This document shows, piece after piece, positions 16,227 through 34,767 of a stretch of DNA of 64,000 nt. The DNA comes from a virus (taxonomy: Duplodnaviria; Caudoviricetes): the IMG/VR virus record IMGVR_UViG_3300035109_000103, positions 4,800 through 68,799 of that record; one strand, given 5' to 3'. Below the pieces are notes generated by a model. That model was given only the letters and a program-made list of their open reading frames with translations, was not told where the DNA came from and did no database searches. Position numbers and translations under genes: made by a program. The number at the start of each line of letters is the position of its first letter. The first letter of the stretch is position 1.

Positions 16227-16952
16227 CTACAGGCTAAGGCCGGCCGCCCTGCCGAGCCATTTGTTTACCGGCGAGCGGTTTGCGCCGAACGAACCTGCTT
16301 TGAAAATCCCGCCGAAGAATTTCATGCCGGTTGCCTGGACGGGGTTGAAGCCGCCGAGGTGAGCTGGTGATTGACCATTTGTCGCGGAATAGGAGCCATC
16401 CGCGACGTCGTTCCGATAGAACGCGCCGCTCGCGGCTCCGTCCATCATGAGCACGCATCGATCGGCGACAGAGAGCGCGGACCCAGCAGGCGCGTCGACC
16501 ACGCCGGTATGGGTCCCCCATTTCCCGCCTGATCCCGCCCCCGTCTTGGCCAGCATCATCATCGCGCCAGTTGCAAAGAGGCCGGTATAGCTGGACTTGA
16601 GCGACGCGATTTCGACCGCTGCGGCGAATGCGCCGGCCACGGCGATCGAATGAAGAAGCTGGTCGTCGACGCCATCGTAGGCGAGCCAGAAGAGGCCCCC
16701 GGCGGTGTGGAAGGTCGGCCGCGAGGCCGCTGTGGTTTGGTAGAGATAGTTGCCAGAGCCGGAGAGATCATCGACGCGGCCGACCGGATCGCTATCGGCC
16801 GTCACCGGGATCGTCCCGGCTGCATCCTGCCATAAGGACGAGAGGACGCGGATATCCCACACGGCTATCGGCGTAGCCGTTAGCGGGTCGAACGCCGCAT
16901 TCCCTTTCTTAGATAGGTTTGCGGAGGAAATATTCATCCCGATCCCGAGCAT
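16227..16952 (-). CDS. LamG/concanavalin-like virion protein
   Basis: MLGIGMNI start; WQDAAGT.PV...PVGRVDDLSGSG..Q.TAASRP...DGVDD motif typical of phage lectin-like decoration proteins. Confidence 0.65.
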   Translation of the reverse strand: MLGIGMNISSANLSKKGNAAFDPLTATPIAVWDIRVLSSLWQDAAGTIPVTADSDPVGRVDDLSGSGNYLYQTTAASRPTFHTAGGLFWLAYDGVDDQLLHSIAVAGAFAAAVEIASLKSSYTGLFATGAMMMLAKTGAGSGGKWGTHTGVVDAPAGSALSVADRCVLMMDGAASGAFYRNDVADGSYSATNGQSPAHLGGFNPVQATGMKFFGGIFKAGSFGANRSPVNKWLGRAAGLSL

Positions 16953-16963
16953 CTTCGGCTGTC

Positions 16964-17275
16964 TTACGAGATCGACTTCGCGTTGATTTTGTCGCCGACC
17001 TTGCCGACGATCGGAAGCCAACCGCCCGCGGCAATGACGACGCCTGCCGTGGTGGCAGCGCTCGCGGCCGTCGCAGCAGCATCCGGCGTTGTCCCGAAGG
17101 CGATAGCGACAGCAGTCGACTCGCCATTGACCACGATCGCGACCTCACCATTTGCGAAAGTGGCCGTGGTGGAAGCCGGGATAGTCAGCGATTCGCGAGC
17201 CCTGACCTGACCAATGCCCGGCGCATGGATAGAACCCATTCCGCGGGGCTCTGCGAAGCTGATGAAAACGGTCAC
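16964..17275 (-). CDS. Small hypothetical head-associated protein
   Basis: 103 aa beta-rich ORF after capsid-associated gene. Confidence 0.55.
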   Translation of the reverse strand: MTVFISFAEPRGMGSIHAPGIGQVRARESLTIPASTTATFANGEVAIVVNGESTAVAIAFGTTPDAAATAASAATTAGVVIAAGGWLPIVGKVGDKINAKSIS

Positions 17276-19955: not shown

Positions 19956-21509
19956 CTATGGCGCATCCGCGCCGGGCGCCGGCGGCGATCCGCTGCTGGC
20001 CGGGATTGCGGGGCCAGGATTGTTTCCGGCCGCCGCATCTGCTTCCGCCGCTGTCGGATCGCCAGGAGCTTCGTCGAGAAGGAGTTGGCGCTCCTTTTCC
20101 GCGTCGAAATTCGAGGAGAGCTTTCCGCGACGCTTGAACTCGCTCCATAGCGTCTCTTGGGAGAGGTCGTTGTTCTTGCGCATCTCGACGAGATCGGCGC
20201 TGCCATCATCAGCGCGAAGATCGAGCGAGTCGTCCGACGACATCTCGACTTCGATCGAGTCCGTCTCGCCTACCCACTTCGCGGTCAAAGCGAGCGCGTT
20301 TTCGAGCGCGTTCTTGAAGTTCAGTTTCAGCGCTTCGATGACGCTGATCGCCTTGTCTCCGGCAAAGGCAGCCGTCACCACCGTGATGTTGCCGCTCTGC
20401 GCCGTGAGAGGCTGGCGCCCGAGCTCCCGGAGCGCTTCTTCCGTTGCCTTCACTTCGTCGGCGAGAAATCGCAGCGACTCGGCGCTTGGCTCGATGAACT
20501 TCCACTCACCGTGGTTGCCATCGGAATCCATCGGCGCGTAGAGGACTGTCTTCGGCCCAACCGGAACCGGCTTCGGATTTCCAGTCGCGTCCTCGGCCGG
20601 CGTCACTCCGTTGCCCGCGAGCATCGGAAAAGCAGTTACCTCGCGCGCATATTTGAGGGCGCTCTCTTGCTGGAAATGCTCGATTTGCAGTTCCGCTGCG
20701 TCTTTCAGAACGGGCTTGAGGCGCCAGGAAGAGCCGATGCGGCGCCCCGCGATGAAAGGGACGATCGGGATAACGCCGATGCTGATCGAGCCGCGGTCGC
20801 GGCGCACCCATGTTTCTTTGTCCTGCCCGTTCTGCGGCTCGATCTCCTCCCAAAGCTCCCATATCGCCGGCGCGGCGGATATCGCGTTGTCGAGGTCATC
20901 GCGCGTGACCTTACGGTCCAGGACACGGACAAACTCGCGCTTCTTCTCTCCCCAGCCGTCGCGCTGAATGGAACATTCCGCGATGCGCGCATGAACGATC
21001 GTCTCTACGCCGCCGATCATTTCGGAATAGACGGCAATCATTTGTTGCGCCGGGATGTGCACCCAATAGGGGCGCGCGCCGAGCGCGGCCTCTTGCGCTA
21101 CCGTGGCGCCCGGCGGAACATTCTTGGTGTAGTCGACGAAAATCCAGTCCAGCGCATAGGCGAGACCGGCATAGAACGACTGCGCCGCGAATTGATGCAG
21201 ATGCGAGCCGTGCCCGTCAATATCCTCGACGAATGACTCGACGCGCGCGCTGGCGCCGGTGATAGTGATCTCTGTTCCGAACGGCTTCGAAGCCAGCGTC
21301 TCGACGATATCGCCGAAGATGTTGGTGAATTTCGCATTGGAAAGACGGAACTTGTAATCTGCGTCGGTCTCGTTCGGGAACTTCGGCAGATAAGCGCTGG
21401 CTTTGCGCATTGCGTCGGCGCCGCCCAAGAGCGCGTCGACCTTGCGCCAGTAGCACTGCATCTCTTCGAAATCCGAAGAGCGAGAGTCCGGTTCTTTGTC
21501 GTCGCTCAA
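19956..21509 (-). CDS. Portal protein (DUF4055-like)
   Basis: YLPKFPNET..DYKFRL..A.F.NIF motif; TTG start overlapping terminase stop (TTGA). Confidence 0.88.
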   Translation of the reverse strand: MSDDKEPDSRSSDFEEMQCYWRKVDALLGGADAMRKASAYLPKFPNETDADYKFRLSNAKFTNIFGDIVETLASKPFGTEITITGASARVESFVEDIDGHGSHLHQFAAQSFYAGLAYALDWIFVDYTKNVPPGATVAQEAALGARPYWVHIPAQQMIAVYSEMIGGVETIVHARIAECSIQRDGWGEKKREFVRVLDRKVTRDDLDNAISAAPAIWELWEEIEPQNGQDKETWVRRDRGSISIGVIPIVPFIAGRRIGSSWRLKPVLKDAAELQIEHFQQESALKYAREVTAFPMLAGNGVTPAEDATGNPKPVPVGPKTVLYAPMDSDGNHGEWKFIEPSAESLRFLADEVKATEEALRELGRQPLTAQSGNITVVTAAFAGDKAISVIEALKLNFKNALENALALTAKWVGETDSIEVEMSSDDSLDLRADDGSADLVEMRKNNDLSQETLWSEFKRRGKLSSNFDAEKERQLLLDEAPGDPTAAEADAAAGNNPGPAIPASSGSPPAPGADAP

Positions 21510-23041
21510 CCTTGACTCCCGTATGTTCCGAACACGGCAGGGGGCCCCTTTGCCGGCTTCACCAAGCGCCCGAATGCCCCCGACGAAGCGTCGACCTGAT
21601 CCTTGAACGAGCCGCCTGGAAACAGGCATAGCTCGTCGAGATAATCGTCGTTCCAGGCGCCGCGGACGAGATAGACGTTCCCGGCTTCGCACTGCGCCGA
21701 GAACGGCGTGGCGCGCGTCTCCTTGTCGCCGGTCTCTGGCTCGGCCCGAACATCCCAGCCGGCGAGCTGCGCAACGAAATCCGACTTCTGGACCTTGCCG
21801 GCTTGGCCAGGATCCTGCGGCAAGCTGATCATCACGCCCTTTCCGTCGATTTCCGCCGTCGCCTTGATGAGCTTGCGTACGGCATTCCCTTCGTCTTGCG
21901 TCATGGCGACATGGCCGACGACATAGCGGCCGTCAGGAGTTTTCCCCAGCTTCACGCCGGCGGTGCGCGCCGACGTCTTCTTCTTCGTTGCCGCAAGGTC
22001 CCAATGTCGGACCCAGACGGTTCGCTCCGGCGCCGCGCCGATGATCTTTCCATCGAACCATGCGCGCTTGAACAACCCGCCTTCGCGTGGGGTCGGCCGC
22101 TGCTGATACTGCCCAGCATAGGAATAGGACCCCATCTCGCGTTGGAGCTTCTCGACTTCCTCACGAGGGAAACGGACCGGATCGAGGAGGTCGCCATCAT
22201 TCGTGCGCGGGTCCTCGAACCCGATGCAGGTCCGGCACCGCCTCTCTTTCTCGAACTCCATCGGCAGGCAAAGATGGACATATTCCATCCCGAGCTTCAG
22301 AATCGTGCCGGAGATGTCATCGGAATGCAGGCGCTGCATCACGACGACGATCGCCGAGCGCTTCTGATCGTTGAGGCGATTGAGCGCGCCCTCACGAAAT
22401 TTGCGCGTCGTCGCTGTCCGTTCGGCATCGCTTTCGACTTTGGTCGTCGAATGCGGATCGTCGATGATCAGACGATCACCGCGCTGCGATGTCAGCGAAC
22501 CGAAGGCGACGCCCTCGCGCGTTCCGGTGCTCGAATTCGCGAACGACATTTCGCCGGCGCGAACGAGATCGACCTCGGGCCAGAGACTGCGATACCACTC
22601 CGACAGGATCAGATCACGGCACTTGCGCGAGTCGCGTTTGACCGGGACGTCGTTATGAGCGGTGGTCAGGAAGCGCATCGAGCGCTTCCCGATCGGGCCC
22701 CATTCCCAGGCCTGCCATAACACCGAAACGATCAGCGATTTCGACGAGCCCGGCGGAACGTTTGTAAGCAGACGCGTGATCTGCCCGAATGTGATCGCCT
22801 CTAAATGCTCACAGATCGCGTCGAGGTGCCAGTTCCAGACCAGCGGTGTGTTCGGCTCGAGGATCGGCCATGCCTCGCGGACGAAGCCGGCGAGCGATTG
22901 ACACCGCGCCCGGATCGCGTCAGCGTTGCGCGCTATCCTTTCCCTTTCTCTTTGCGCCTCCCTACGCGCTCTCTCCGCCCGGATCGCTTCCAGGCTGGGC
23001 AATCTTGGCGCGGAGCTTTTCGAGCAAGTCGAGCTCTTCAT
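21506..23041 (-). CDS. terL: Terminase large subunit
   Basis: Walker A-like NVPPGSSKS, Walker B LIIDDP, VMQRLH, YAGQYQQRP, C-terminal FP.G..KDQVD nuclease motif; possible TTG start at 23002. Confidence 0.93.
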   Translation of the reverse strand: MKSSTCSKSSAPRLPSLEAIRAERARREAQRERERIARNADAIRARCQSLAGFVREAWPILEPNTPLVWNWHLDAICEHLEAITFGQITRLLTNVPPGSSKSLIVSVLWQAWEWGPIGKRSMRFLTTAHNDVPVKRDSRKCRDLILSEWYRSLWPEVDLVRAGEMSFANSSTGTREGVAFGSLTSQRGDRLIIDDPHSTTKVESDAERTATTRKFREGALNRLNDQKRSAIVVVMQRLHSDDISGTILKLGMEYVHLCLPMEFEKERRCRTCIGFEDPRTNDGDLLDPVRFPREEVEKLQREMGSYSYAGQYQQRPTPREGGLFKRAWFDGKIIGAAPERTVWVRHWDLAATKKKTSARTAGVKLGKTPDGRYVVGHVAMTQDEGNAVRKLIKATAEIDGKGVMISLPQDPGQAGKVQKSDFVAQLAGWDVRAEPETGDKETRATPFSAQCEAGNVYLVRGAWNDDYLDELCLFPGGSFKDQVDASSGAFGRLVKPAKGPPAVFGTYGSQG

Positions 23042-23420
23042 CGCTCAGCGCCGACAAATCGCAATATTCAATCGGGCCGCCGTTCTTGCCGCCGTGTTCA
23101 TGAATGGTGGTCTCTTTCCACCCAGCGCGCACCTTCAGCCAGAAGATCGCGGCGGTGACCGACGGGCCGGTGATCCCTTTCGATGTCGCCTTGGCGAAGA
23201 GGCTCTGCGCGACCATAGCGTTCGCCTTGATCGCGGCAGTCTCGAGTTCCAGGCCGTAATGCTTTCGCAGCGTCTTCGGATCGATTCCGATAACCGTTCC
23301 GATTTCGATGTGCGGAATTCCATAGGACGCCAGCGCTTCGACCATTTTGCGAGACTTGGCGTCAGGCGTATGCCTTGGACGACCTGGCTTTCTAGGTCGT
23401 CGTGGTTTGCGTGCAGCCAT
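22962..23420 (-). CDS. terS: Terminase small subunit
   Basis: GRPRHTP...GIPHIEIG..IGID.KTLRKHY..EL...AAIFWLK.RAGWKE motif. Confidence 0.88.
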   Translation of the reverse strand: MAARKPRRPRKPGRPRHTPDAKSRKMVEALASYGIPHIEIGTVIGIDPKTLRKHYGLELETAAIKANAMVAQSLFAKATSKGITGPSVTAAIFWLKVRAGWKETTIHEHGGKNGGPIEYCDLSALSDEELDLLEKLRAKIAQPGSDPGGESA

Positions 23421-23518
23421 CGATGAGTTTCTTTTGATGTCGCATTAGACCGGAGTTGCTCCTGCATTCGTTCTGCGCTGTCCTGCGTTCATCAGAACTT
23501 CAGCAAAGGAGAGCAGCT

Positions 23519-24187
23519 ATGAATGCCAACGACCTTTCCAAGCCTTTCACCGATCGCTCGAACTGCCGCCGCGCCGCTAAGCGTGAATGCGGCGACGCTT
23601 TCGAGATCGAACGCGTCGAAGGCGGCTTCGCGTTTCGTCGGCCGCCTGAGACTCGTTTCCCCGGCGCCGCGAAGGCGATCGCAGAAGAGACCCCCGGCCT
23701 GAAGCGCCTCCGCGCATCTTCCGTCGCGATCGCCCTTCGCGTATCCGCGATCGCCGATCAGACAAAGGAAATGACGCGCCAAGCCGAGAAGATGGCCTCC
23801 GTCAATATTGAAAACCTCACCCCCGCTTCACATCCGATTGCGGCGGCGAACGCGGAGAGCTGGCCGAAAGGCAAAGCGACAGCCAAGGCGGCGAACCTTG
23901 CCAAAATCGACAAGCCCGCAACGGCGAAGGAACTCGGCAAGCGCGCGGCCATTCTCGCAGCCGCGCAGGCCGGCGCGCTTCCGACGCCGCCCGATTTCAG
24001 CGCGGCGACGCACGCCCGGTTTCGTGGGAAGCTCGCCGAACTGACGAAGCTCGCGGAGGCCGGCGATATCGAAGGCCTCAAGGCTTACGCCATCAAGCCG
24101 GTTTCGAGCAGCCCCAAGGCGCTCGATCGATATCGGAATCTCTGCGTCCTCGCGCTCGAGGCGCGCATGACGGCAGCGGCCGCCTAA
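23519..24187 (+). CDS. Hypothetical Ala/Lys-rich protein, antisense moron (222 aa)
   Basis: AAAGGAG RBS before ATG 23519; helical C-terminal domain PTPPDFSAATHARFR.KL...KALDRYRNLCVLALEAR. Confidence 0.8.
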   Translation: MNANDLSKPFTDRSNCRRAAKRECGDAFEIERVEGGFAFRRPPETRFPGAAKAIAEETPGLKRLRASSVAIALRVSAIADQTKEMTRQAEKMASVNIENLTPASHPIAAANAESWPKGKATAKAANLAKIDKPATAKELGKRAAILAAAQAGALPTPPDFSAATHARFRGKLAELTKLAEAGDIEGLKAYAIKPVSSSPKALDRYRNLCVLALEARMTAAAA

Positions 24188-24900
24188 TCGATGGTTGCCG
24201 GCGAGGTCACATTCCAGAACAGCACGAGCCCGGCCCCGCGCCGGGCTTTGCATATCTCCCACGCCTTGGCGTCGTAATGCGGGTCGCTCGGGAATGGCAC
24301 AGCGGCCTTGCTGGCCTTCTCGAATTTCTGCTGGGCCACATGAATGGTCGCGCCGGCGACGTCATTGGCCTCGAGCTTCTTTCCCACTTGCACGACATGC
24401 CGGCGAGCGTTCGGCCATGCGGCGGCGAGGCCGCGGGCGAGCGTTCCAGATCCTGCGGCGCACCAGACCTCATCCGGCTGCACGCCCGAGGCGCGCGCGG
24501 CCGCGGCGATCGTCTGAATCGTCTCCGGGAGATCGACACCGAATGGAGCCAGCAGTGAACCTGTCTTCTCGGCATAGGCGCGGGCTCGCGCCGAGACGAC
24601 GCTCAGATAACCGGGGCTCACCTGATAGACCTTCGCCCCGTGGCGCTTCGCCATCAGCGCCCTGGCGTGCGGCTGGGCGCGCTTGGCGACGAAGATCGTC
24701 GCACGCTTGCCGAGGCGCCGCGCCGTGATTGCGAGCGCCGTTTGCGCCGCGCCTTCGGCCGGGCTCGCGTAGACGATCTCATCCGCGTCGTGAAAGAGCG
24801 CCGGCAGATAGCGCGCCTTCGTGCCGCCCGAGAACAGATCGTCGCGGACGACGGCAATCCCCTCGTGCTCGCGAATGATTGGCCGTTCACTGGCATTCAT
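24184..24900 (-). CDS. PLP-dependent fold-type II enzyme (TrpB / cysteine synthase / ACC-deaminase superfamily), compact
   Basis: VVRDDLFSGGTK (Schiff-base Lys28), GAAQTALA, MAKRHGAKV, phosphate loop CAAGSGTLARGL, DPHYDAKAW, LFWNV. Confidence 0.8.
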   Translation of the reverse strand: MNASERPIIREHEGIAVVRDDLFSGGTKARYLPALFHDADEIVYASPAEGAAQTALAITARRLGKRATIFVAKRAQPHARALMAKRHGAKVYQVSPGYLSVVSARARAYAEKTGSLLAPFGVDLPETIQTIAAAARASGVQPDEVWCAAGSGTLARGLAAAWPNARRHVVQVGKKLEANDVAGATIHVAQQKFEKASKAAVPFPSDPHYDAKAWEICKARRGAGLVLFWNVTSPATID

Positions 24901-24919
24901 TGGCGTTCACTACCATTCA

Positions 24920-25810
24920 TTAGAGCAGCTCGCCGAACTCGTCGGCGGCGGAGGCATGCGGCGTCTCGCCGCCGACTCCTCCTTCGCCGAATGCAACTTC
25001 CCCAACGGCCTCGGTCGCCTTGCGCGGGTCGCCCTTGCAGAAGACCAGGACATTTTGGTGAGTCTTGCCGAGCTTCCGTGTCGCGGCGAATTGCTTGCCG
25101 GCGCGGATCGGAAGGGAGCCGATCGCGGTGACCAGAACGGCTTCATTGTAGAGACCGGCGCCGGCGGCGCGAAAGGCGCGGATCGTCTCGCCCGGAAAAT
25201 CCCGATAGAAGCCGTCCGGCCCGCGGAAATCGCCGACGACGAAGCAGGCGAACCGATCCGGCTTGAGAAGCCGAACCGACGACGCGATGATATCGCGATA
25301 GGCCTCGCAAAAGGCCTCATGTTTCATCGTCGACAGGTCGGCCGCGAGGTCCGAATAGACCTCGAGGTCGCCATAGGGCGGGCATGAGAACACGAAGTCC
25401 GCTTCGACCTCGAGGCCCGGGAGGACCGCTCGGCTATCGCCGGCGATCCACTCCGGAGTCGGAAAGCCATTGCAGATCACCGCGGCCTGCGCGCGATTGG
25501 CGATGAGCTGCTCCGGCCTGAGATCGACGCCGATATATCGCCGGCCGAGCCGGCTGGCGACAATGCCGCGCACCGAGCCCCCGGCGAAGGGATCGAGCAC
25601 GAGGCCGCCCGGCGGGCAGAACCAGCGATAGGCGAGCTCGCACAGGACAGGATCGAAAATCGATGTCCCGGTGATCGTGCGCCCGGCGCCGTCGAAGTTC
25701 TCGATCTCGCCAAAGACGAGACCCGCGGGGAGCGATGATCTCTTCTCTCCGACCTCATGCTCCCCGCGCGTCAGTTCCGGGGCGAAGCATCTGGCTTTTC
25801 CCTTCGCCAT
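24920..25810 (-). CDS. SAM-dependent DNA amino-methyltransferase-fold protein
   Basis: GTSIFDPVLCE, motif I VLDPFAGGSVRG, motif IV-like FSCPPYGDLEVYS, HQNVLVF.KG. Confidence 0.85.
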   Translation of the reverse strand: MAKGKARCFAPELTRGEHEVGEKRSSLPAGLVFGEIENFDGAGRTITGTSIFDPVLCELAYRWFCPPGGLVLDPFAGGSVRGIVASRLGRRYIGVDLRPEQLIANRAQAAVICNGFPTPEWIAGDSRAVLPGLEVEADFVFSCPPYGDLEVYSDLAADLSTMKHEAFCEAYRDIIASSVRLLKPDRFACFVVGDFRGPDGFYRDFPGETIRAFRAAGAGLYNEAVLVTAIGSLPIRAGKQFAATRKLGKTHQNVLVFCKGDPRKATEAVGEVAFGEGGVGGETPHASAADEFGELL

Positions 25811-26577
25811 CAGTCCTCGCTCTTTCTGTCACGGAGCTTGGCGCGATTTGCCGCCATCTTCTCGTTCATCGCTTTCCACCCGCCACCGCCGCCGCCGGCG
25901 GGCTCAGCATTGGGCTTGCGTCTGCCGCGCGATTGCTTGGGCGCCATGAATTCGTTGGCTGTATCCGACATCCTGAGCAAGTTCTCGCCGCGCCCGACCT
26001 CGCTTTCGATGCCGAGCGCCAACCAGGCGCGCTTTCGATCCTGCCACCATCCCTCCCGCGCCGTCAGCACGGAGAACGGCGGAATTCCGAAGCGCTCGAT
26101 CAAATTGCCGAGCCGCGGCGGCGCGCGCTCGGGCGTCGCGCCGATCGCGTCGCCGTCCCCTCCGATCCCGAAAGGCAGGGCGACGATCTCGTCGAGCGAG
26201 AAGCCGGTCAGCGCAATATCGAAGTCGAGCTCCTGCAGCGCGCCGATCTCGGCGGCGAGGATATCGAAGTCCCAGCCCGCGTTCAGCGCGAGCTTATTAT
26301 CCGCGATGACATAAGCGCGGACTTTCTCCGGCGACCAATCCGCCCCGACGACGAGAGTCGGGACCTCTGTCATTCCGAGCGACTGCGCGGCCTGGAGACG
26401 TCCATGCCCGGCCCTGATCTCTCCATCACGGGAAATCAGGATCGGCGCCGTGAAGCCGAACTCGCGAATGGCCGCGGCGAGCTGCTCGACCTGCTCCTTG
26501 CTATGAGTCCGGGCATTTCTGGGGAAAGGCTTGAGAAGCGCGACCGCGCGCATCTCCACTGCATTGATCTTCGGCAT
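25810..26577 (-). CDS. ParB/Srx-like N-terminal domain protein (N-terminal partner of the MTase)
   Basis: RNARTHS..Q...IREFGFT.PILI....AGHGRL.AA...ADNK; then PPFSVL..R.GWWQDRKRAW; TGATG coupling to MTase. Confidence 0.88.
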   Translation of the reverse strand: MPKINAVEMRAVALLKPFPRNARTHSKEQVEQLAAAIREFGFTAPILISRDGEIRAGHGRLQAAQSLGMTEVPTLVVGADWSPEKVRAYVIADNKLALNAGWDFDILAAEIGALQELDFDIALTGFSLDEIVALPFGIGGDGDAIGATPERAPPRLGNLIERFGIPPFSVLTAREGWWQDRKRAWLALGIESEVGRGENLLRMSDTANEFMAPKQSRGRRKPNAEPAGGGGGGWKAMNEKMAANRAKLRDRKSED

Positions 26578-26589
26578 GGCGCAAGACAC

Positions 26590-26788: not shown

Positions 26789-26882
26789 GAGGGGGAAATT
26801 CGACTTTCGTTCTTGGACCAGCTGGACGCTCGCGCCGACGGTGATCGGAGCGCCAGACTGCTTCGGCAGCATCCTTGTAATT

Positions 26883-26920
26883 GTCTCACAACAGTCTCAC
26901 AACAGTCTCACAACAGTCTC
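26883..26920 (+). repeat. 11-bp tandem repeat GTCTCACAACA x3 plus partial copy
   Basis: Perfect units at 26883, 26894 and 26905; partial at 26916. Confidence 0.95.
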
Positions 26921-26931
26921 ATAATGATCTC

Positions 26932-27351
26932 ATGGCTATCAAATTCGCGCCTGACCGAGCGAAAGGCACCACATGTTCATCCGATGCGTCTGCCACGCCT
27001 GCGGATACGATGTCTTCTCCCAAACATTCCCGCATTTCGGACGCTAGGACAGAGCTCATGCCCGAGCATTCCGCGTCGACGGGGTCTGCTCAGAGCGCGA
27101 ACGAGCCGAGAAGACGCGGGAGGCCGAGGCTGGAAAGGCGGGGCCAGTCGCTTACAGCATTGAACATGCCCGAGCATTCCGCGTCGACGGGGTCTGCTCA
27201 GAGTGCGAACGAGCCGAGAAGACGCGGGAGGCCGAAGCTGGAAAGGCGGGGCCAGTCGCTTACAGCAATGAAACCGTGGGAATCAGCGGGGATGAGTCGG
27301 GCGACTTGGTATAGGAGACAGGCCGAGGAAGCCGCGAAGGGCGCGCAATAG
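26932..27351 (+). CDS. Small DNA-binding protein with C-terminal HTH-like motif (KPWESAGMSRATWYRRQ)
   Basis: RRGRPRLE AT-hook-like segments and PW.A.GMSRATWYRR motif; contains internal 36-aa duplication; start uncertain. Confidence 0.55.
   Translation: MAIKFAPDRAKGTTCSSDASATPADTMSSPKHSRISDARTELMPEHSASTGSAQSANEPRRRGRPRLERRGQSLTALNMPEHSASTGSAQSANEPRRRGRPKLERRGQSLTAMKPWESAGMSRATWYRRQAEEAAKGAQ
27057..27267 (+). repeat. Tandem duplication, 103-bp copies with 108-bp period
   Basis: Copies 27057-27159 and 27165-27267 differ at two positions. Confidence 0.95.
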
Positions 27352-30639: not shown

Positions 30640-30803
30640 TCTGCCACTGCCTTCGATCGCCGCGCTGCCTTCGCGCGCGCTCTGGCGCGCTTGATCATTC
30701 CAGATGGACGCCGGATCACGACGGCAGAGCGCTCGACAGACCTGCGCGTGCTCTTATTCCAGAGGTCGAATTTGATCGTTTCGGGAGGCCTGAACCACAT
30801 CAT
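30636..30803 (-). CDS. Small basic hypothetical protein (55 aa)
   Basis: Fills gap with ATGA coupling at both ends; translated manually. Confidence 0.5.
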   Translation of the reverse strand: MMWFRPPETIKFDLWNKSTRRSVERSAVVIRRPSGMIKRARARAKAARRSKAVAE

Positions 30804-31489
30804 GCGGCGCGGCTCCGGAGAAGCGCAGCGCGCGCGGCGAGCCCCACGTATTCGGCGTAGGCTGGCGGAATTGATTCAGACAGCTCGGTCAGGCTCATCC
30901 AATCGATCCCCATGGCGCTATAGCCCTCGGCGATGCTGAAATCCGCGACGCCGCGCGCGTGCGAGCCTTCACGACGCTTTCGATTTCGGACATGGCCGCC
31001 GTAGAGGCCGATCGTCGCGGGCTGGAGTCCATGACGGCATTCGAGCCGAGGAACCGTGAAGTTCGCCTCGAGGCCGCGATGCCGCCGCAGCTCGGCGCCT
31101 GGCACGCCGAGCCCGAACATCGTCCCGCAGAGCGTCACAGGATCTTCGAGTGGAGCTCCTGGGACGTTCTCGATCACATAGAGCGCGCCGCTGGCGCGCA
31201 GCATCGCACGCGTCGCCGGAATGAGGTCTTCATGCGGCTTCGCATTGTGCATGCTCTTCATCGCTGTATGCGCTTGGCACGGCGGCGACGCCCATATAAG
31301 AGCGAATTTGCGCAGATGGTCAGGGTCGATCGTGAGGGCGTCGCGTTGGACAAACCAAATTCCGCGGCAAATGGGATAGTTCGGCTGCGGATTGATATCG
31401 ACCCCCTCGACGTCGAACCCGGCGCGGTAGAGCCCCGCTGCCGCGCCGCCGGCCCCACAATAGAGATCGAGCGCAAGTGGGCGCGTCAT
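30800..31489 (-). CDS. Compact C5-cytosine DNA methyltransferase-like protein
   Basis: Motif I DLYCGAGG, catalytic ASPPCQ, ENV, RRHR, SIPPAY. Confidence 0.85.
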   Translation of the reverse strand: MTRPLALDLYCGAGGAAAGLYRAGFDVEGVDINPQPNYPICRGIWFVQRDALTIDPDHLRKFALIWASPPCQAHTAMKSMHNAKPHEDLIPATRAMLRASGALYVIENVPGAPLEDPVTLCGTMFGLGVPGAELRRHRGLEANFTVPRLECRHGLQPATIGLYGGHVRNRKRREGSHARGVADFSIAEGYSAMGIDWMSLTELSESIPPAYAEYVGLAARAALLRSRAA

Positions 31490-31743
31490 GGCGCTTCCCC
31501 GAATTTCAACTGAAACCCGCGTGGTTCTTCGATGATCGCACCGGCGTCCTGCAGGCGCTCGAGCGCGGCGAGCACGTCAGCGCGCGACAGCTCCGTGACA
31601 ACAACCAATCGACCGATCAATGTGCGTGAGCGCGGGACGAGTCCAAAGGCATCCGCCTCATTCGCCAGCGCGAGCAAGACGATCTTGGACATCGGGCCCC
31701 CGACCGAGCGTGAATAGGCCCAGGAAAGCACATGCAGGCTCAA
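31486..31743 (-). CDS. Truncated replication-initiator-like winged-HTH protein
   Basis: MSLHVLSWAY...KIVLLALANEAD..G...LSRADV..AL.RL...G resembles the N-terminus of phage replication initiators; only 85 aa. Confidence 0.6.
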   Translation of the reverse strand: MSLHVLSWAYSRSVGGPMSKIVLLALANEADAFGLVPRSRTLIGRLVVVTELSRADVLAALERLQDAGAIIEEPRGFQLKFGEAP

Positions 31744-33296
31744 GACATCCTCCTCCGCATCGTCACGACGACGGTGTTGACATTCGTCCCGCTCTCTCGA
31801 AACGAGCCGGGCGGAAGATCGCGGAACGAACCGCCGTTGCGCTCGACAAGCGCGCGGAACGCGACAGCCTTCCTGGTCTCACGGAACTCAGTTCCTGCCG
31901 AAATGATCGCGAAGAGTTGGCCTCCCGGTTTCAGGAAGCCAAGCGCGTGGGTGACGTGGTCGAGGTCCCTTTCTCTATCGAATGGGGGATTCATCACGAC
32001 GAGATCGTAGGGCTCGAACGCGTTCGGCCGCAGCGAGAGGAAGTCGGCGCGGATGACGCGATTGTAGATCCCCTCGGCCTCGAGGCCTGCGGCGAGCTCC
32101 GGCTGGATTTCGACGCAGTCGACAAGATTGTCGAAGCGGTATTCGTCGACGTAGTTCCGCCCGCGATTTGACCATTCGGCCATCACTGCAGCCGAGTGGA
32201 CGCACCGGCGCGCGAGGTTGCCGGTCCCGGCCGATGGCTCCAGGATGCGGAGTCGAGACTCTTCTCTGCGTCGCAGAATCGGAATGCCGGAGACGCATCC
32301 GCGACCGCGGAAAAACTCGTCCACCGCCTCTGGTGGCGTCGGGAAAAAACCGAAGTGCCGCGCCGGCGTCAGCTTGCGGTTCTGTAGCGGGTCCTCTTCC
32401 TTGGTCGCGCCGTCCGCAATGACCTCGCCATAATATTCGGCGAGCAGCTTATTGACCTTCTCGACGAGGTCATGGCGAGAAAGCCACAAATGCGCGTTGC
32501 CGTTTTTGAACGCGCGGATTTTAAAGTAGGGCGTCTCGTGCTCGCTCTGCGATGCTTCGCGCACGCGGCGCCCGACAAGCGCATCGATCGCCGATTGAAA
32601 CGAGCCTTCAGGATGGCCGTCAAGCACGGCGAACACGCGCTCGACGTCGATAAGCTTGTCCCGGATCGAACCGGAATTGAGATGGCCCCACGAGTCGAAC
32701 GCGTAAGTCAGAATGATGCGGCCGCCGACCTTGAAGCCGTCGTGCGACTTGAACCTGCGATCCAGCGCAGAAAAGACGTTGGCGATTCCGCGGCAGAAAA
32801 TCATTCCCGCATCGCCTCGGAATTTCTCAAGCGTCGCGTAAACATTCTCGACCGTGATAGGTGGAAGGCCTTTGTCCATTTCGGCTTGATTGATGATCTG
32901 GCCATGAAAGCCGACCTTATCGGGGACGTAAGCCATTTGCTGGCGAAGCTCTTCCTTCGCCTTCGCGTCCATAAGGCGCTCGAGTTCCGTCATCTTGATG
33001 AGGTTCGCCCATGTCCCGTTCGCGAGCAGCTTGCGCGCCGTGCGCAGATATCGACCGCGTTCCGGGAGAGCGAGGGCGGCATAGAAGTCCTTGGCCTCTT
33101 CGACCTGCGACGACCCGCCGAATATGCGCAATTGGCCGGCGGTCGCCTCTCGTTCCCTGAGGTTCGCGGCCTTCAATGCTTCCTGTGCGATTTCCATCGC
33201 ATCGAAGGCGCGCTCATAGAGCGCCAGCGCTTCGTCATGCGCCCGCACGATATCCTCGATCGTCTGGCGAGGGACCGGGAGGGCTGTCGCGCTCAT
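31740..33296 (-). CDS. DUF4942-like domain + N6-adenine methyltransferase
   Basis: FKNGNAH motif; GFFPTP, LEPSAGTG, VMNPPF, GTNVNT. Confidence 0.85.
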   Translation of the reverse strand: MSATALPVPRQTIEDIVRAHDEALALYERAFDAMEIAQEALKAANLREREATAGQLRIFGGSSQVEEAKDFYAALALPERGRYLRTARKLLANGTWANLIKMTELERLMDAKAKEELRQQMAYVPDKVGFHGQIINQAEMDKGLPPITVENVYATLEKFRGDAGMIFCRGIANVFSALDRRFKSHDGFKVGGRIILTYAFDSWGHLNSGSIRDKLIDVERVFAVLDGHPEGSFQSAIDALVGRRVREASQSEHETPYFKIRAFKNGNAHLWLSRHDLVEKVNKLLAEYYGEVIADGATKEEDPLQNRKLTPARHFGFFPTPPEAVDEFFRGRGCVSGIPILRRREESRLRILEPSAGTGNLARRCVHSAAVMAEWSNRGRNYVDEYRFDNLVDCVEIQPELAAGLEAEGIYNRVIRADFLSLRPNAFEPYDLVVMNPPFDRERDLDHVTHALGFLKPGGQLFAIISAGTEFRETRKAVAFRALVERNGGSFRDLPPGSFRESGTNVNTVVVTMRRRMS

Positions 33297-33490
33297 CGCG
33301 CCTTCCTCCATTCCGAGGCGCCCACCTTCCGCCACCCCTTCGTCGGATGAAGCGAATAAGCGACGTGCCTCACTTCGATCCATTCGACGCGGCCACGCCA
33401 ATCGAGGAACTTGCGGAGCCCGCGGACGACGCGCGTTGCGACGCTCTTCCTGCCTTTGATCGGGGAAATGCCGGGAGGATGCGTGATCAT
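33293..33490 (-). CDS. Small hypothetical protein
   Basis: 65 aa, ATGA-coupled on both sides. Confidence 0.55.
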   Translation of the reverse strand: MITHPPGISPIKGRKSVATRVVRGLRKFLDWRGRVEWIEVRHVAYSLHPTKGWRKVGASEWRKAR

Positions 33491-34767
33491 GCCGCGACCT
33501 TCTCCCGTTCCAACAGAAGATCATTCCAATCAATCGAGCGCCCGTCTCCCCAGGCATGCGGCGCCTTCGGAACCGAAACGACGACGTCAACGCCGCCGCG
33601 CCTATAGCGCTCGGCTCCGGTGCGGAGAGTCGCCGCCATCTTCGCTGCATCCGCGTCTGCGTCTCCGATTAGGACGAGGCGGCGCACCTCCGGCGGGAGC
33701 CAGATCGCCGCGGACCCCATATCCGGCTCCCCGTTCATGATCGTAGCGTTCGGCCGGCCGCGCGGAGGATTCGGATGTGGGCGCGTCCCCGTCGCGCTCC
33801 CGCACAGGTTCCCGAGGCTATAGGCCGCTGTGAGCGAAGCGCCTGCGAATTCGTCACCGAGCAAGCCTTCATCGGCTTTCGCTTTCCAAGACATCGCATT
33901 TTCGATCCCCTCGGCGCAGGCCATCGTTTCGTGGAAGGGGAGGGGGCCGAGCAGGATCAGCCCGCCACCAGCGTGAAAGACGGCTTTCTTCGCCGAGTTC
34001 CGTTTCCGATCGCCTGGCGGCCTCAGCTTGATCGGCTCTCCGCTGGGGCGGTAGGCGTCGCATCCCCGCCCGGCGTCCAAATAGATGCGGTGGACACCTT
34101 GGATGCGGCCCGTGCGATCGCGCAGCGCTGCGATGACGCAGTGATAGGAGCCGAGGTCGACTTCCTCTTCAGCATCCCGATCGGAGAATCCGCGATAGGG
34201 CAGGTTCGGGATAAAGCGCAAATCACTCGCCGCCAGAATGATCCGCCGCGGGATTCCGCGGGCGTCGAAATAATCCTCGCCGAGGGTTCCCTCGAGCGGG
34301 CGGACATCGAACTGCTGGCCGAATAGTTCCCCGCGCTCGAACAGCGCGGTCGCGTTCTCGATCGCACGAAGCAGAGACGCCGCCTCTTTCCGTTCCTCGA
34401 CAATTGCCGCATCTCTCCGCTCGTCCCGGCGCTCTTTGTCGATCAAAGGATCTGGCTCACGGTGGGGCTCGGATTGCCCCGGCGCATCTTCGTCGAGGAC
34501 GTATTCGCAGACGCGAATGAAGTCGGCTTTCGGATCGAACCCCTTGATATGCGCCGCCATGGCGATGACGTCGCCGCCGCCGAAGCCCCTGCAATTGAAA
34601 ACCCGTTCTTTGATGTTGACGCTGAATCGGTCTGTTCCGCCGCATGACGGGCACGGCCCGGCCCATTCTGCGGCGCCGGCCTTCTTCAATTGCGCGCCAA
34701 GTCGCTGCGCGACCGGGAGAGGATCGGCGCTCTTCGCGCGCTCGACAAAATCGTCGCGGTCGGTCAT
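33487..34767 (-). CDS. DNA primase (CHC2 Zn finger + Toprim-like)
   Basis: GPCPSCGGTDRF...FNCRG.GGGDVI; GVHRIYL; AEGIENA; LIGDAD. Confidence 0.88.
   Translation of the reverse strand: MTDRDDFVERAKSADPLPVAQRLGAQLKKAGAAEWAGPCPSCGGTDRFSVNIKERVFNCRGFGGGDVIAMAAHIKGFDPKADFIRVCEYVLDEDAPGQSEPHREPDPLIDKERRDERRDAAIVEERKEAASLLRAIENATALFERGELFGQQFDVRPLEGTLGEDYFDARGIPRRIILAASDLRFIPNLPYRGFSDRDAEEEVDLGSYHCVIAALRDRTGRIQGVHRIYLDAGRGCDAYRPSGEPIKLRPPGDRKRNSAKKAVFHAGGGLILLGPLPFHETMACAEGIENAMSWKAKADEGLLGDEFAGASLTAAYSLGNLCGSATGTRPHPNPPRGRPNATIMNGEPDMGSAAIWLPPEVRRLVLIGDADADAAKMAATLRTGAERYRRGGVDVVVSVPKAPHAWGDGRSIDWNDLLLEREKVAA

Follow-up and report, generated by a model that had tools for sequence, protein, structure and literature searches.

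What do genes for a ParB-domain protein, an enzyme with a SAM-dependent methylase fold and a compact PLP enzyme do side by side next to the packaging genes of a soil prophage? The trio was found in a 64,000-nucleotide stretch of DNA (the window) from a temperate phage of the Caudoviricetes. The original prediction held that the SAM-dependent enzyme installs a group on DNA which the PLP enzyme then converts. The conservation and fusion of the three genes point to an undescribed DNA modification route, and a literature search returned no paper describing a module of ParB, methylase and PLP genes.

Gene layout upstream of the terminase genes

The ORFs were located as predicted, as three tightly spaced, co-oriented genes upstream of terS. 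They run head to tail on the minus strand in the order ParB, methylase-fold, PLP, ahead of terS and terL. The features of the locus are:

25810-26589, minus strand: ParB/Srx N-terminal-domain protein, 259 aa (PF02195, phrog_15396)
24920-25810, minus strand: SAM-dependent methylase-fold enzyme, 296 aa (PF01555, phrog_12517, phrog_498)
24897..24920, minus strand: mini-ORF of seven codons, MNGSERQ followed by a stop, read directly from the sequence
24184-24900, minus strand: compact fold-type II PLP enzyme, 238 aa, assigned by sequence to the M6 gp52 family (PF00291, phrog_7093)
23456-24187, plus strand: convergent neighbour ORF, 243 aa, candidate member of the module (phrog_24512, 1.9e-08)
22962-23420, minus strand: terS, packaging gene flanking the module (phrog_309, 8.2e-19)
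21506-23041, minus strand: terL, packaging gene flanking the module (phrog_38, 2.2e-80; PF17289)

One base is common to the ParB stop and the methylase start (TGATG), and 19 nt lie between the methylase stop and the PLP start. The ParB ORF starts with GTG and extends to 26589; the previously given end at 26577 is an ATG four codons inside it. The mini-ORF arose when 20 nt at the start of the PLP gene were duplicated in tandem (copies 24901-24920 and 24881-24900, 16 of 20 bases identical). It overlaps its neighbours at both ends, its ATG sharing bases with the methylase stop (TAATG) and its own stop with the PLP ATG (ATGA). Exactly 20 nt are missing at 24894 in related-strain contigs from two runs.

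Downstream on the same strand follow terS, terL and then the portal gene. The trio thus adjoins the packaging genes, but with the convergent plus-strand ORF between the PLP gene and terS, its earlier description as the head of their operon is not exact. A Pfam search matched no family to this ORF. Its residues ~155-240 (the last ~80) gave tblastn matches in 46 of 57 viral and 36 of 42 genomic loci. The provirus also has additional methylase-like genes and many unannotated ORFs.

The ParB/Srx assignment was upheld by a Pfam match above the cut-off (ParB_N, PF02195, 29.6 bits against 26.3) and by the presence of the ParB/Srx motif AGHGR at residues 60-64 (GxxR-type; GHGR). The protein matches phrog_15396 at 5.7e-63, matches phrog_498, a fusion of ParB and methylase, over the N-terminal part of the latter, and aligns with residues 1-221 of a single fused protein of phage ZS04. 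According to the conservation profile, a PPF(S/T)...GWWQxRKxAW...GRGE segment is kept in its C-terminal third.

Family and fold of the two enzymes

The PLP enzyme matches PALP (PF00291) with 47 bits against a cut-off of 35, and its model (pLDDT 96.9) has the complete two-domain fold-II architecture. The original fold-II assignment, based on Lys28 in GGTK and a GSGT loop, agrees with the invariance of K28, G26 and G152 in 88 diverse relatives (about 40-60% identity). The Schiff base is predicted to form on K28; GSGT, the predicted phosphate loop, lines up with GTGGT in cysteine synthase. The invariance of the cofactor lysine and the phosphate loop implies that PLP chemistry was kept.

The closest structural neighbours were D-cysteine desulfhydrase (4d9f; Z 23.8, rmsd 2.5, 236 of 238 residues aligned) and 1j0a (Z 23.6). 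D-cysteine desulfhydrase and ACC deaminase share the RDD...GGxK lysine context with the PLP enzyme, but the latter is ~90 residues shorter and only 17-20% identical to them. An identity as either enzyme was rejected, the resemblance being structural with no equivalog-level sequence match: no NCBIfam model of either matched, and the best NCBIfam match was to a dehydratase subfamily (40 bits against a cut-off of 331). The C-terminal 60 residues gave no sequence match to any solved fold-II enzyme.

By sequence the PLP enzyme groups with gp52 of phage M6. The window protein matches phrog_7093 at 2.4e-54 and the type member M6 gp52 matches it at 2.2e-159. Profile alignment with hhalign (probability 98.8%, E 1.2e-16, 219 columns) placed K28 opposite gp52 K36 (the K of FSKIR). 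The C-terminal signature of the PLP enzyme, PFPSxPxYDAKAW ... FWNV, was aligned as well, with PFPSDPHYDAKAW/FWNV opposite PFPCNPFYDLKAW/FWNI. The two proteins are only ~25% identical and the substrate loop (residues 48-54) is unlike that of gp52. As a tblastn query, gp52 recovered the PLP gene in 158 fetched loci. By sequence comparison, true homology links the PLP protein to M6 gp52, a DNA-adduct decarboxylase. The original analogy with PLP tailoring in ViI- and M6-type phages becomes much stronger because of this homology, which had not been claimed.

Both gp52 of Pseudomonas phage M6 and gp226 of Salmonella phage ViI resemble the window protein in phrog_7093 membership, the aligned lysine, the PFPxxPxYDxKAW...FWN signature and a compact fold-II structure near 1j0a (Lee et al. 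2021, PMC8989533). In vitro, gp52 decarboxylates C-alpha-glycinyl-thymidine in DNA and gp226 likewise decarboxylates O-seryl-thymidine in DNA; the only characterised activity of the PLP family is on DNA-bound adducts and not on free metabolites (PMC8989533). In M6 and ViI the decarboxylase is partnered by a 5-hmdU DNA kinase and an amino acid:DNA transferase working on 5-hydroxymethyl-dU, to which M6 adds a radical-SAM isomerase (PMC8989533). In those phages, as in the window, the PLP enzyme is phage-encoded beside DNA-modification genes. Here, unlike in M6 and ViI, the phages are temperate and the PLP enzyme is paired with a SAM-dependent methylase fold that is linked to ParB and often forms one polypeptide with it. 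To our knowledge, all established PLP-dependent phage DNA tailoring begins with 5-hydroxymethyl-dU and a dedicated amino acid:DNA transferase.

Searches of the window and all fetched loci (~250) with M6 gp51, gp53, gp54 and gp58 (tblastn, E 0.01) gave no match, in line with the earlier remark that no thymidine-pathway partner is recognisable. Neither the window nor any of these loci contained the M6 kinase, the transferase or the radical-SAM enzyme, or a homologue of a dUMP hydroxymethylase-type enzyme. A thymidine hypermodification cluster, with 5-HMUDK, aGPT-Pplase/AADT and dUMP hydroxymethylase-type genes nearby, is therefore not what surrounds the PLP gene.

The methylase-fold enzyme matches phrog_12517 (1.3e-97), phrog_498 (4.3e-74) and N6_N4_Mtase (PF01555, 43.7 bits against a cut-off of 26.7), the last over the motif I part alone. 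The DPFAGG and SCPPY motifs that had been reported were found and are nearly invariant in 42 relatives, in which D73, G77, G78 and C143-P144-P145-Y146 are invariant. The beta-class enzymes TTHA0409 (2zie), CcrM, M.MboIIA and M.PvuII can be aligned with the window enzyme at motif I (DPFxGxG) and at motif IV (xPPY and the L..Y that comes next). Unlike these, the window enzyme has motif I (56-103) before motif IV (120-206), whereas in TTHA0409 IV is at 24-114 and I at 224-271; it also has no separate target-recognition domain, and in its branch Cys replaces Asp/Asn/Ser before PPY. Judged from motif order, it is a circular permutation of the beta-class DNA amino-methylases, with DPFAGG (I) preceding SCPPY (IV). 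At the place of the catalytic (D/N/S)PP(Y/F), CPPY is invariant in this branch and SPPY occurs in sister branches that are also PLP-paired. A literature search found no paper describing a variant with Cys at the first position of motif IV.

The nearest solved relatives are TTHA0409 (2zie, best by sequence), CcrM, M.MboIIA, N4-cytosine methylases and M.PvuII. A fold search with the model (pLDDT 75, core >90; the conserved loop 229-248 is predicted to be disordered) returned generic class I methylases. No sequence relation to known aminocarboxypropyl transferases was detected; the one hint, in the fused relative P0215, was a TRM5-TYW2 match that stayed below threshold (17.8 against 28 bits).

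Co-inheritance and fusion of the three genes

Co-occurrence of the PLP and methylase genes was the point on which the original prediction had staked itself, and it was seen almost without exception. Of 99 loci with a complete PLP gene and 2.2 kb or more of sequence ahead of it, 95 have the methylase directly upstream on the same strand. Since this arrangement is kept in 55 of 57 viral and 40 of 42 genomic loci, it is not due to chance. The PLP family comprises >1,600 clusters at 90% identity, and the about 250 linked loci fetched come from alphaproteobacterial prophages, cyanophages and uncultured phages. The module is present in four phages that are in culture, R6L, ZS04, Mae-JY30 and Pam4. 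The pairing occurs in three deeply diverged lineages: prophages with CPPY, a phage with SPPY (L229) and PolB phages of low GC, in which the methylase is again a phrog_12517 match. A giant-virus contig encodes a 31%-identical PLP homologue with no methylase nearby.

At least four fusion topologies were found (ParB-MTn-PLP-MTc, MTn-PLP-MTc, ParB-MT-PLP, MT-PLP and PLP-ParB-MT), and gene order also varies, with ParB-PLP-MT in one locus (L147). In Erythrobacter phages R6L and ZS04 and Pseudanabaena phage Pam4 the PLP domain is nested within the methylase fold. It enters at the loop before methylase strand 3, which by textbook Rossmann topology would face away from the SAM site. The ParB, methylase-fold and PLP proteins are inherited together, often as one polypeptide. 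Some relatives have YunG domains fused to the PLP domain, and in L229 a 2OG-oxygenase-like gene adjoins YunG-PLP, ParB and methylase. In the low-GC lineage a SAM-lyase-family gene (PF23780, 47.6 bits) lies two genes from the PLP gene, with the methylase near.

Complex prediction for the methylase and PLP proteins gave a median ipSAE of 0.41 (best control 0.00), with contacts agreeing between runs by at least 17% and partner pLDDT of at least 87. Of 80 solved complexes 58 reached the mark used, against 2 of 110 mismatched pairs; among values up to 0.60 the passes comprised only 7 of the 80 solved complexes, together with both mismatches. The prediction lends weak support to a contact between the two proteins.

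The module resembles the phage ParB-terminase (ParB-Tls) fusions in its ParB domain, methylase family and site upstream of the terminase (PMC6536676; PMC4738411; phrog_498). Unlike in those fusions, ParB and methylase are here two translationally coupled genes, and a PLP gene is added. The ParB-methylase literature searched makes no mention of a PLP component.

Possible chemistry of the module

We infer that the three genes encode one DNA-modifying machine beside the packaging genes. Our leading reading, held tentatively and at less than even chance, is a two-step reaction in which the aminocarboxypropyl group of SAM is attached to a base by the methylase-fold enzyme and the adduct is then decarboxylated by the PLP enzyme. 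With the complex kept on phage DNA by the ParB domain, a base would be flipped out by the methylase-fold enzyme and receive the 3-amino-3-carboxypropyl group of SAM instead of its methyl; SAM would be the sole amino-acid-bearing substrate that this fold binds. An exocyclic or ring nitrogen would be alkylated and methylthioadenosine released. The PLP enzyme would then form a Schiff base with the alpha-amino group of the side chain and remove CO2, leaving a 3-aminopropyl group whose positive charge may shield packaged DNA from host nucleases. In phages that have the methylase-fold enzyme but lack the PLP gene, the adduct would keep its carboxyl group.

SAM aminocarboxypropyl transferases are known for RNA (Tyw2, Tsr3 and the DTW-domain acp3U enzymes), Tyw2 being a precedent for a methylase-type fold that uses the amino-acid arm of SAM. 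Phage Mu Mom is a precedent for a phage-made non-methyl group on adenine N6. We know of none among Tyw2, Tsr3, the DTW enzymes and Mom that acts on DNA with a PLP partner, and of no report of aminocarboxypropyl transfer by the present methylase family. The original modification reading is supported in part. The co-occurrence of PLP and methylase, their repeated fusion, including nesting, the gp52 homology and the absence of thymidine-pathway partners speak for it; the non-methyl transfer is opposed by motifs (DPFxGG, (S/C)PPY) and solved relatives that are those of ordinary N4/N6 DNA amino-methylases. Also counting against the leading reading are the methylases that occur with no PLP gene, a substrate loop unlike the one in gp52, a nested PLP domain that would face away from SAM, and the giant-virus PLP homologue that lacks a methylase neighbour. 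The full version, with transfer to an adenine or cytosine nitrogen in dsDNA and decarboxylation by a gp52-family enzyme to 3-aminopropyl as the first SAM-derived polyamine-like base, we consider rather unlikely.

The same canonical motifs and relatives fit an ordinary packaging-linked N4-cytosine or N6-adenine methylase with an optional PLP helper that acts on free SAM or S-adenosylhomocysteine and makes no new base. The helper might decarboxylate or destroy S-adenosylhomocysteine, easing product inhibition in bulk methylation, or might make decarboxylated SAM for polyamines used in packaging. The methylase stands alone in about half of its loci: the PLP gene is absent from 36 of 73 methylase-seeded viral loci, a PLP-free methylase can be up to 96% identical to a PLP-linked copy, and PLP-free members also occur in Firmicute, mycobacterial and haloarchaeal phages. 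On the methylase tree PLP presence switches at least 12 times, a gain and loss typical of an accessory gene. No alignment column separates PLP-linked from PLP-free methylases, so the methylase shows no residue shift alongside the PLP gene, and aminocarboxypropyl transfer should be a property of all members of the family or of none. The SAM-lyase-family gene of the low-GC lineage also fits a helper, and SAM and S-adenosylhomocysteine would, like the gp52 substrate, be alpha-amino acids tethered to a nucleoside. However, the sole characterised PLP-family activity is on DNA-bound adducts, nested insertion and five fusion topologies exceed what a helper for a diffusible metabolite needs, and the YunG fusions and 2OG-oxygenase-like neighbour resemble tailoring steps. 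We know of no PLP-dependent enzyme acting in this way on SAM or S-adenosylhomocysteine, and regard this explanation, the main rival to the leading reading, as unlikely.

Alternatively, another, unrecognised phage or host enzyme attaches the amino acid and the ParB-methylase is just a frequent neighbour of the PLP gene. The ParB-terminase locus is a described hot spot that collects DNA-modification genes (PMC6536676; PMC4738411), and the extra methylase-like genes and unannotated ORFs of the provirus, as well as the conserved ORF adjoining the PLP gene in most loci, are in keeping with this. This is improbable, given that homologues of known installers were absent from the window and about 250 loci, that nested single polypeptides are not expected of hot-spot neighbours, and that the pairing persists in lineages with nothing else nearby in common.

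Fold-II PLP enzymes are usually dimers, and the methylase has no recognition domain of its own; a PLP fold serving it as dimerising or DNA-recognition scaffold, or independent counter-defence activities joined as in polyvalent phage proteins, where ParB and methylase domains are often strung with unrelated enzymes (PMC5512222), is nevertheless the least probable explanation, given the invariant cofactor lysine and phosphate loop across 88 sequences, an insertion inside another fold that differs from beads-on-a-string polyvalency, and a PLP gene that is almost never without the methylase.

Whichever chemistry applies, the pairing is new in that it ties the gp52-type decarboxylase family to a SAM-dependent methylase fold, even nested inside it. 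If aminocarboxypropyl transfer and decarboxylation do take place, the route would need no 5-hydroxymethyl pyrimidine, kinase or free amino acid, and the large ParB-linked (S/C)PPY 'methylase' family would at least partly not be methylases. Even with methyl as the sole product, the PLP partner would amount to an undescribed kind of helper enzyme for DNA methylation. If the product is a new base, the module would provide a second entry route to DNA hypermodification and a new chemistry for nuclease-resistant DNA, and a large 'methylase' family would need re-annotation.

Gene layout of the module and its neighborhood

The window comes from a 68.8-kb provirus record of a soil metagenome (ca. 63% G+C). 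The three genes of the module lie on the minus strand, together with the genes for terS, terL and portal.

Genes of the module and its surroundings (window coordinates)
25810-26589, minus: ParB-domain protein, 259 aa
24920-25810, minus: methylase-fold enzyme, 296 aa
24184-24900, minus: fold-type II PLP enzyme, 238 aa
23456-24187, plus: convergent ORF between the PLP gene and terS, 243 aa
22962-23420, minus: terS
21506-23041, minus: terL
19956-21692, minus: portal

The ParB and methylase genes overlap by one base, shared between stop and start, and 19 nt separate the methylase and PLP genes. Within this gap (24881-24920, minus strand) the start of the PLP gene is tandemly duplicated over 20 nt, with 16 of the 20 bases alike. 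The duplication creates a seven-codon bridging ORF of which the ATG overlaps the methylase stop and the stop overlaps the PLP ATG. Related strains, represented by contigs in two runs, lack one copy, and a single copy would yield a direct TAATG stop-start overlap between the methylase and PLP genes. In one wood-decay metatranscriptome, short contigs of relatives covered parts of the ParB, methylase, PLP and terL genes, although contigs from an RNA library do not demonstrate transcription.

The starts of the convergent ORF and of terS, on opposite strands, are 36 bp apart. In most related loci a counterpart of the last ca. 80 residues of this ORF, 60-75% conserved, lies next to the module, with the distance varying from locus to locus. 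The ORF belongs to no Pfam family and matched only phrog_24512, of unknown function; it is unrelated to DUF3102 and to the N-terminal domains that some PLP proteins carry elsewhere. Three further ORFs of the window were recorded: a 156-aa ORF (26881-27351, plus) with an internal tandem repeat of ca. 33 residues (MPEHSASTGSAQSANEPRRRGRP.LERRGQSLTA, twice) and neither a Pfam nor a PHROG match, a short C5-cytosine-methylase-like protein (30800-31489, minus) scoring just under the Pfam threshold (21.6 versus 22 bits), and a 636-aa DUF4942 protein with an NPPF methylase domain (31740-33650, minus) of the same provirus.

Linkage and fusion of the three parts

Relatives of the PLP protein numbered more than 1,600 among 90%-identity clusters, nearly all of ca. 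234 aa, and 1,275 among 50%-identity representatives. Of the loci collected with the PLP protein, 55 of 57 viral and 40 of 42 genomic ones had a methylase gene immediately upstream of the PLP gene and on its strand, and ParB preceded the methylase in 55 and 36 of these, respectively. Hosts named in the records were mainly Hyphomicrobiales and Rhodobacterales. Cultured phages carrying the module are Microcystis phage Mae-JY30, Erythrobacter phages R6L and ZS04, and Pseudanabaena phage Pam4. In ZS04 and R6L a single protein of 812-830 aa holds all three parts, the PLP domain being nested within the methylase.

Parts of the fused ZS04/R6L protein (residues)
1-221: ParB
241-389: methylase half with motif I
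400-621: whole PLP domain
636-791: methylase half with motif IV

This arrangement occurred in eight representatives and, without ParB, in three. Other fusions joined ParB, methylase and PLP (two), methylase and PLP (three) or PLP, ParB and methylase (one), and the gene order ParB-PLP-methylase was also seen. For two fused representatives (P0225 and P0223) no related loci were found in viral contigs, and one metagenome locus was. The fusions and the upstream-methylase counts led us to reject the PLP gene as a chance neighbor: the trio is one evolutionary unit. For the separate methylase and PLP proteins the predicted complex scored a median ipSAE of 0.41 against 0.00 for the best control; this is weak support. 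In the calibration, 58 of 80 solved complexes and 2 of 110 mismatched pairs reached the mark; with scores of 0.60 or lower, only 7 of the 80 solved complexes did so, along with both mismatched pairs.

The pairing of methylase and PLP recurs in two distant lineages, in which SPPY replaces CPPY while the ExY motif after it and the PHROG are shared. Some relatives have the PLP domain fused to YunG (PF24585) or DUF3102 domains. One locus (L229, 5868-9833) places a YunG-PLP fusion between a 2OG-oxygenase-like gene (Asp_Arg_Hydrox) on one side and ParB with an SPPY methylase on the other, all of them contiguous. In the YunG domain, which has no relative in the PDB or PHROG, a Cys...His...Asp pattern was noted by eye; it may represent the triad of a thiol hydrolase or transferase. 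In low-GC (33%) phages (L239, 6947-10735; also L233-L250 and L253) the genes for PLP, dUTPase, a SAM-lyase-family protein (PF23780), an SPPY methylase and PolB stand in a row; these phages are all close relatives and thus count as one lineage. A 31%-identical homolog (L152, 6935-7729) is located on a 154-kb giant-virus-like contig that also encodes F-box/ankyrin, Rpb1-like RNA polymerase and PolX proteins; no methylase was present within 5 kb of it.

The dependence is one-sided. Of 73 new viral loci collected with the methylase, 36 lacked a PLP gene, and in several of these terS follows the methylase directly. One PLP-free methylase was 96% identical to a PLP-linked copy, the methylase tree shows at least 12 changes in PLP presence, and no residues or columns in the alignment separate methylases with and without a PLP gene. 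Together with the near-constant linkage seen from the PLP side, the PLP-free methylases indicate that the PLP enzyme requires the methylase fold and not the reverse.

Our literature searches returned nothing on a ParB-methylase-PLP module, on CPPY methylases or on any PLP component of ParB-methylase loci. The R6L paper names ORF1 a CcrM-like methylase; we found no paper mentioning a PLP domain inside this protein or Pam4 gp70.

Relationships of the PLP and methylase-fold proteins

The motifs named in the original prediction (DPFAGG and SCPPY in the methylase, K28 in GGTK and the GSGT loop in the PLP protein) were all recovered and are kept in relatives. The retention of K28 and GSGT argues against an inactive PLP domain, which we rejected. 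The PLP protein was modeled with a pLDDT of 96.9 as a complete but trimmed fold-II enzyme. The model aligned over 236 of 238 residues with D-cysteine desulfhydrase (Z 23.8, rmsd 2.5) and scored similarly with the ACC-deaminase homolog 1j0a (Z 23.6). By sequence the single protein gave only noise against the PDB, and profiles reached solved fold-II enzymes weakly, over the first 170-180 residues.

The decisive relationship is that to phage M6: the PLP protein matched phrog_7093 (2.4e-54), of which M6 gp52 is the full-length type (2.2e-159). A profile of 88 relatives matched gp52 with 98.8% probability over 219 columns, placing K28 on gp52 K36 and GSGT on SSGT. The C-terminal signature PFPxxPxYDxKAW...FWN is common to both, and gp52 as query found the PLP gene in 158 fetched loci. 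Purified gp52 decarboxylates C-alpha-glycinyl-thymidine in DNA, and ViI gp226, which was modeled on 1j0a, decarboxylates O-seryl-thymidine in DNA (Lee et al., PMC8989533). The substrate of the nearest characterized relative is thus an alpha-amino acid attached to a base within polymeric DNA.

The partners of gp52 were not found. Neither the window nor ca. 250 loci contained a match to the M6 amino acid:DNA transferase gp51, radical-SAM isomerase gp53, 5-hmdU DNA kinase gp54 or thymidylate-synthase-like gp58, which indicates that the decarboxylase family has switched partners. The experimentally defined kinase gp54 (16686-17249 in the M6 locus L254) is labeled 'terminase small subunit' in RefSeq and PHROGs, an annotation trap when scanning for hypermodification clusters.

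The methylase profile was closest to TTHA0409 (2zie), CcrM, M.MboIIA, N4-cytosine methylases and M.PvuII, and the reversed order of its halves makes it a circularly permuted beta-class enzyme. CPPY is invariant in this branch; Enterococcus and Listeria phages without a PLP gene also have it in their ParB-methylases. Since the permuted order conceals the DNA methylases from Foldseek, its matches were generic class I methylases (NmbA, TrmN, NNMT), which say nothing on substrate. In the model the Rossmann core is minimal and a recognition domain is absent. Residues 229-248 (GSLPIRAGKQF..RKLGKTHQ), which rank with the best-conserved stretches of the family, are predicted to be disordered (pLDDT <50) and form a candidate DNA-contact or partner-contact loop.

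Possible reactions of the module

We tentatively favor a joint DNA-modifying enzyme whose PLP part removes the carboxyl group from an amino acid bound to DNA. This reading is suggested by the gp52 homology, the absence of another installer, the repeated fusions and the tailoring-type neighbors. A methylase fold has just one amino-acid-bearing group to give, the aminocarboxypropyl arm of SAM; the methylase-fold enzyme would transfer this arm to the base, and decarboxylation by the PLP part would leave an aminopropyl base. In essence, this matches the second option of the original prediction, which had a methyl or aminocarboxypropyl group installed on DNA and converted by the PLP enzyme. Against it stands that the transferase, in each respect that can be recognized, is a DNA amino-methylase, and that many phages use it alone, with pairing bringing no sequence shift.

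The main rival, which we consider somewhat less likely, combines an ordinary methylase with a PLP enzyme whose substrate would be free SAM or S-adenosylhomocysteine, both likewise nucleoside-tethered amino acids. SAM lyase, YunG, DUF3102, AdoHcyase and MTA/SAH nucleosidase families were all absent from the 68.8-kb record, which covers the provirus and not the S-adenosylhomocysteine pathway of the host. The remaining weight is divided among an unrecognized installer, a scaffold role and functions independent of one another.

With respect to the favored joint enzyme, the kind of system is known, namely phage DNA hypermodification with PLP tailoring. What would be new is that the installing enzymes are a different set and that the phages are temperate.
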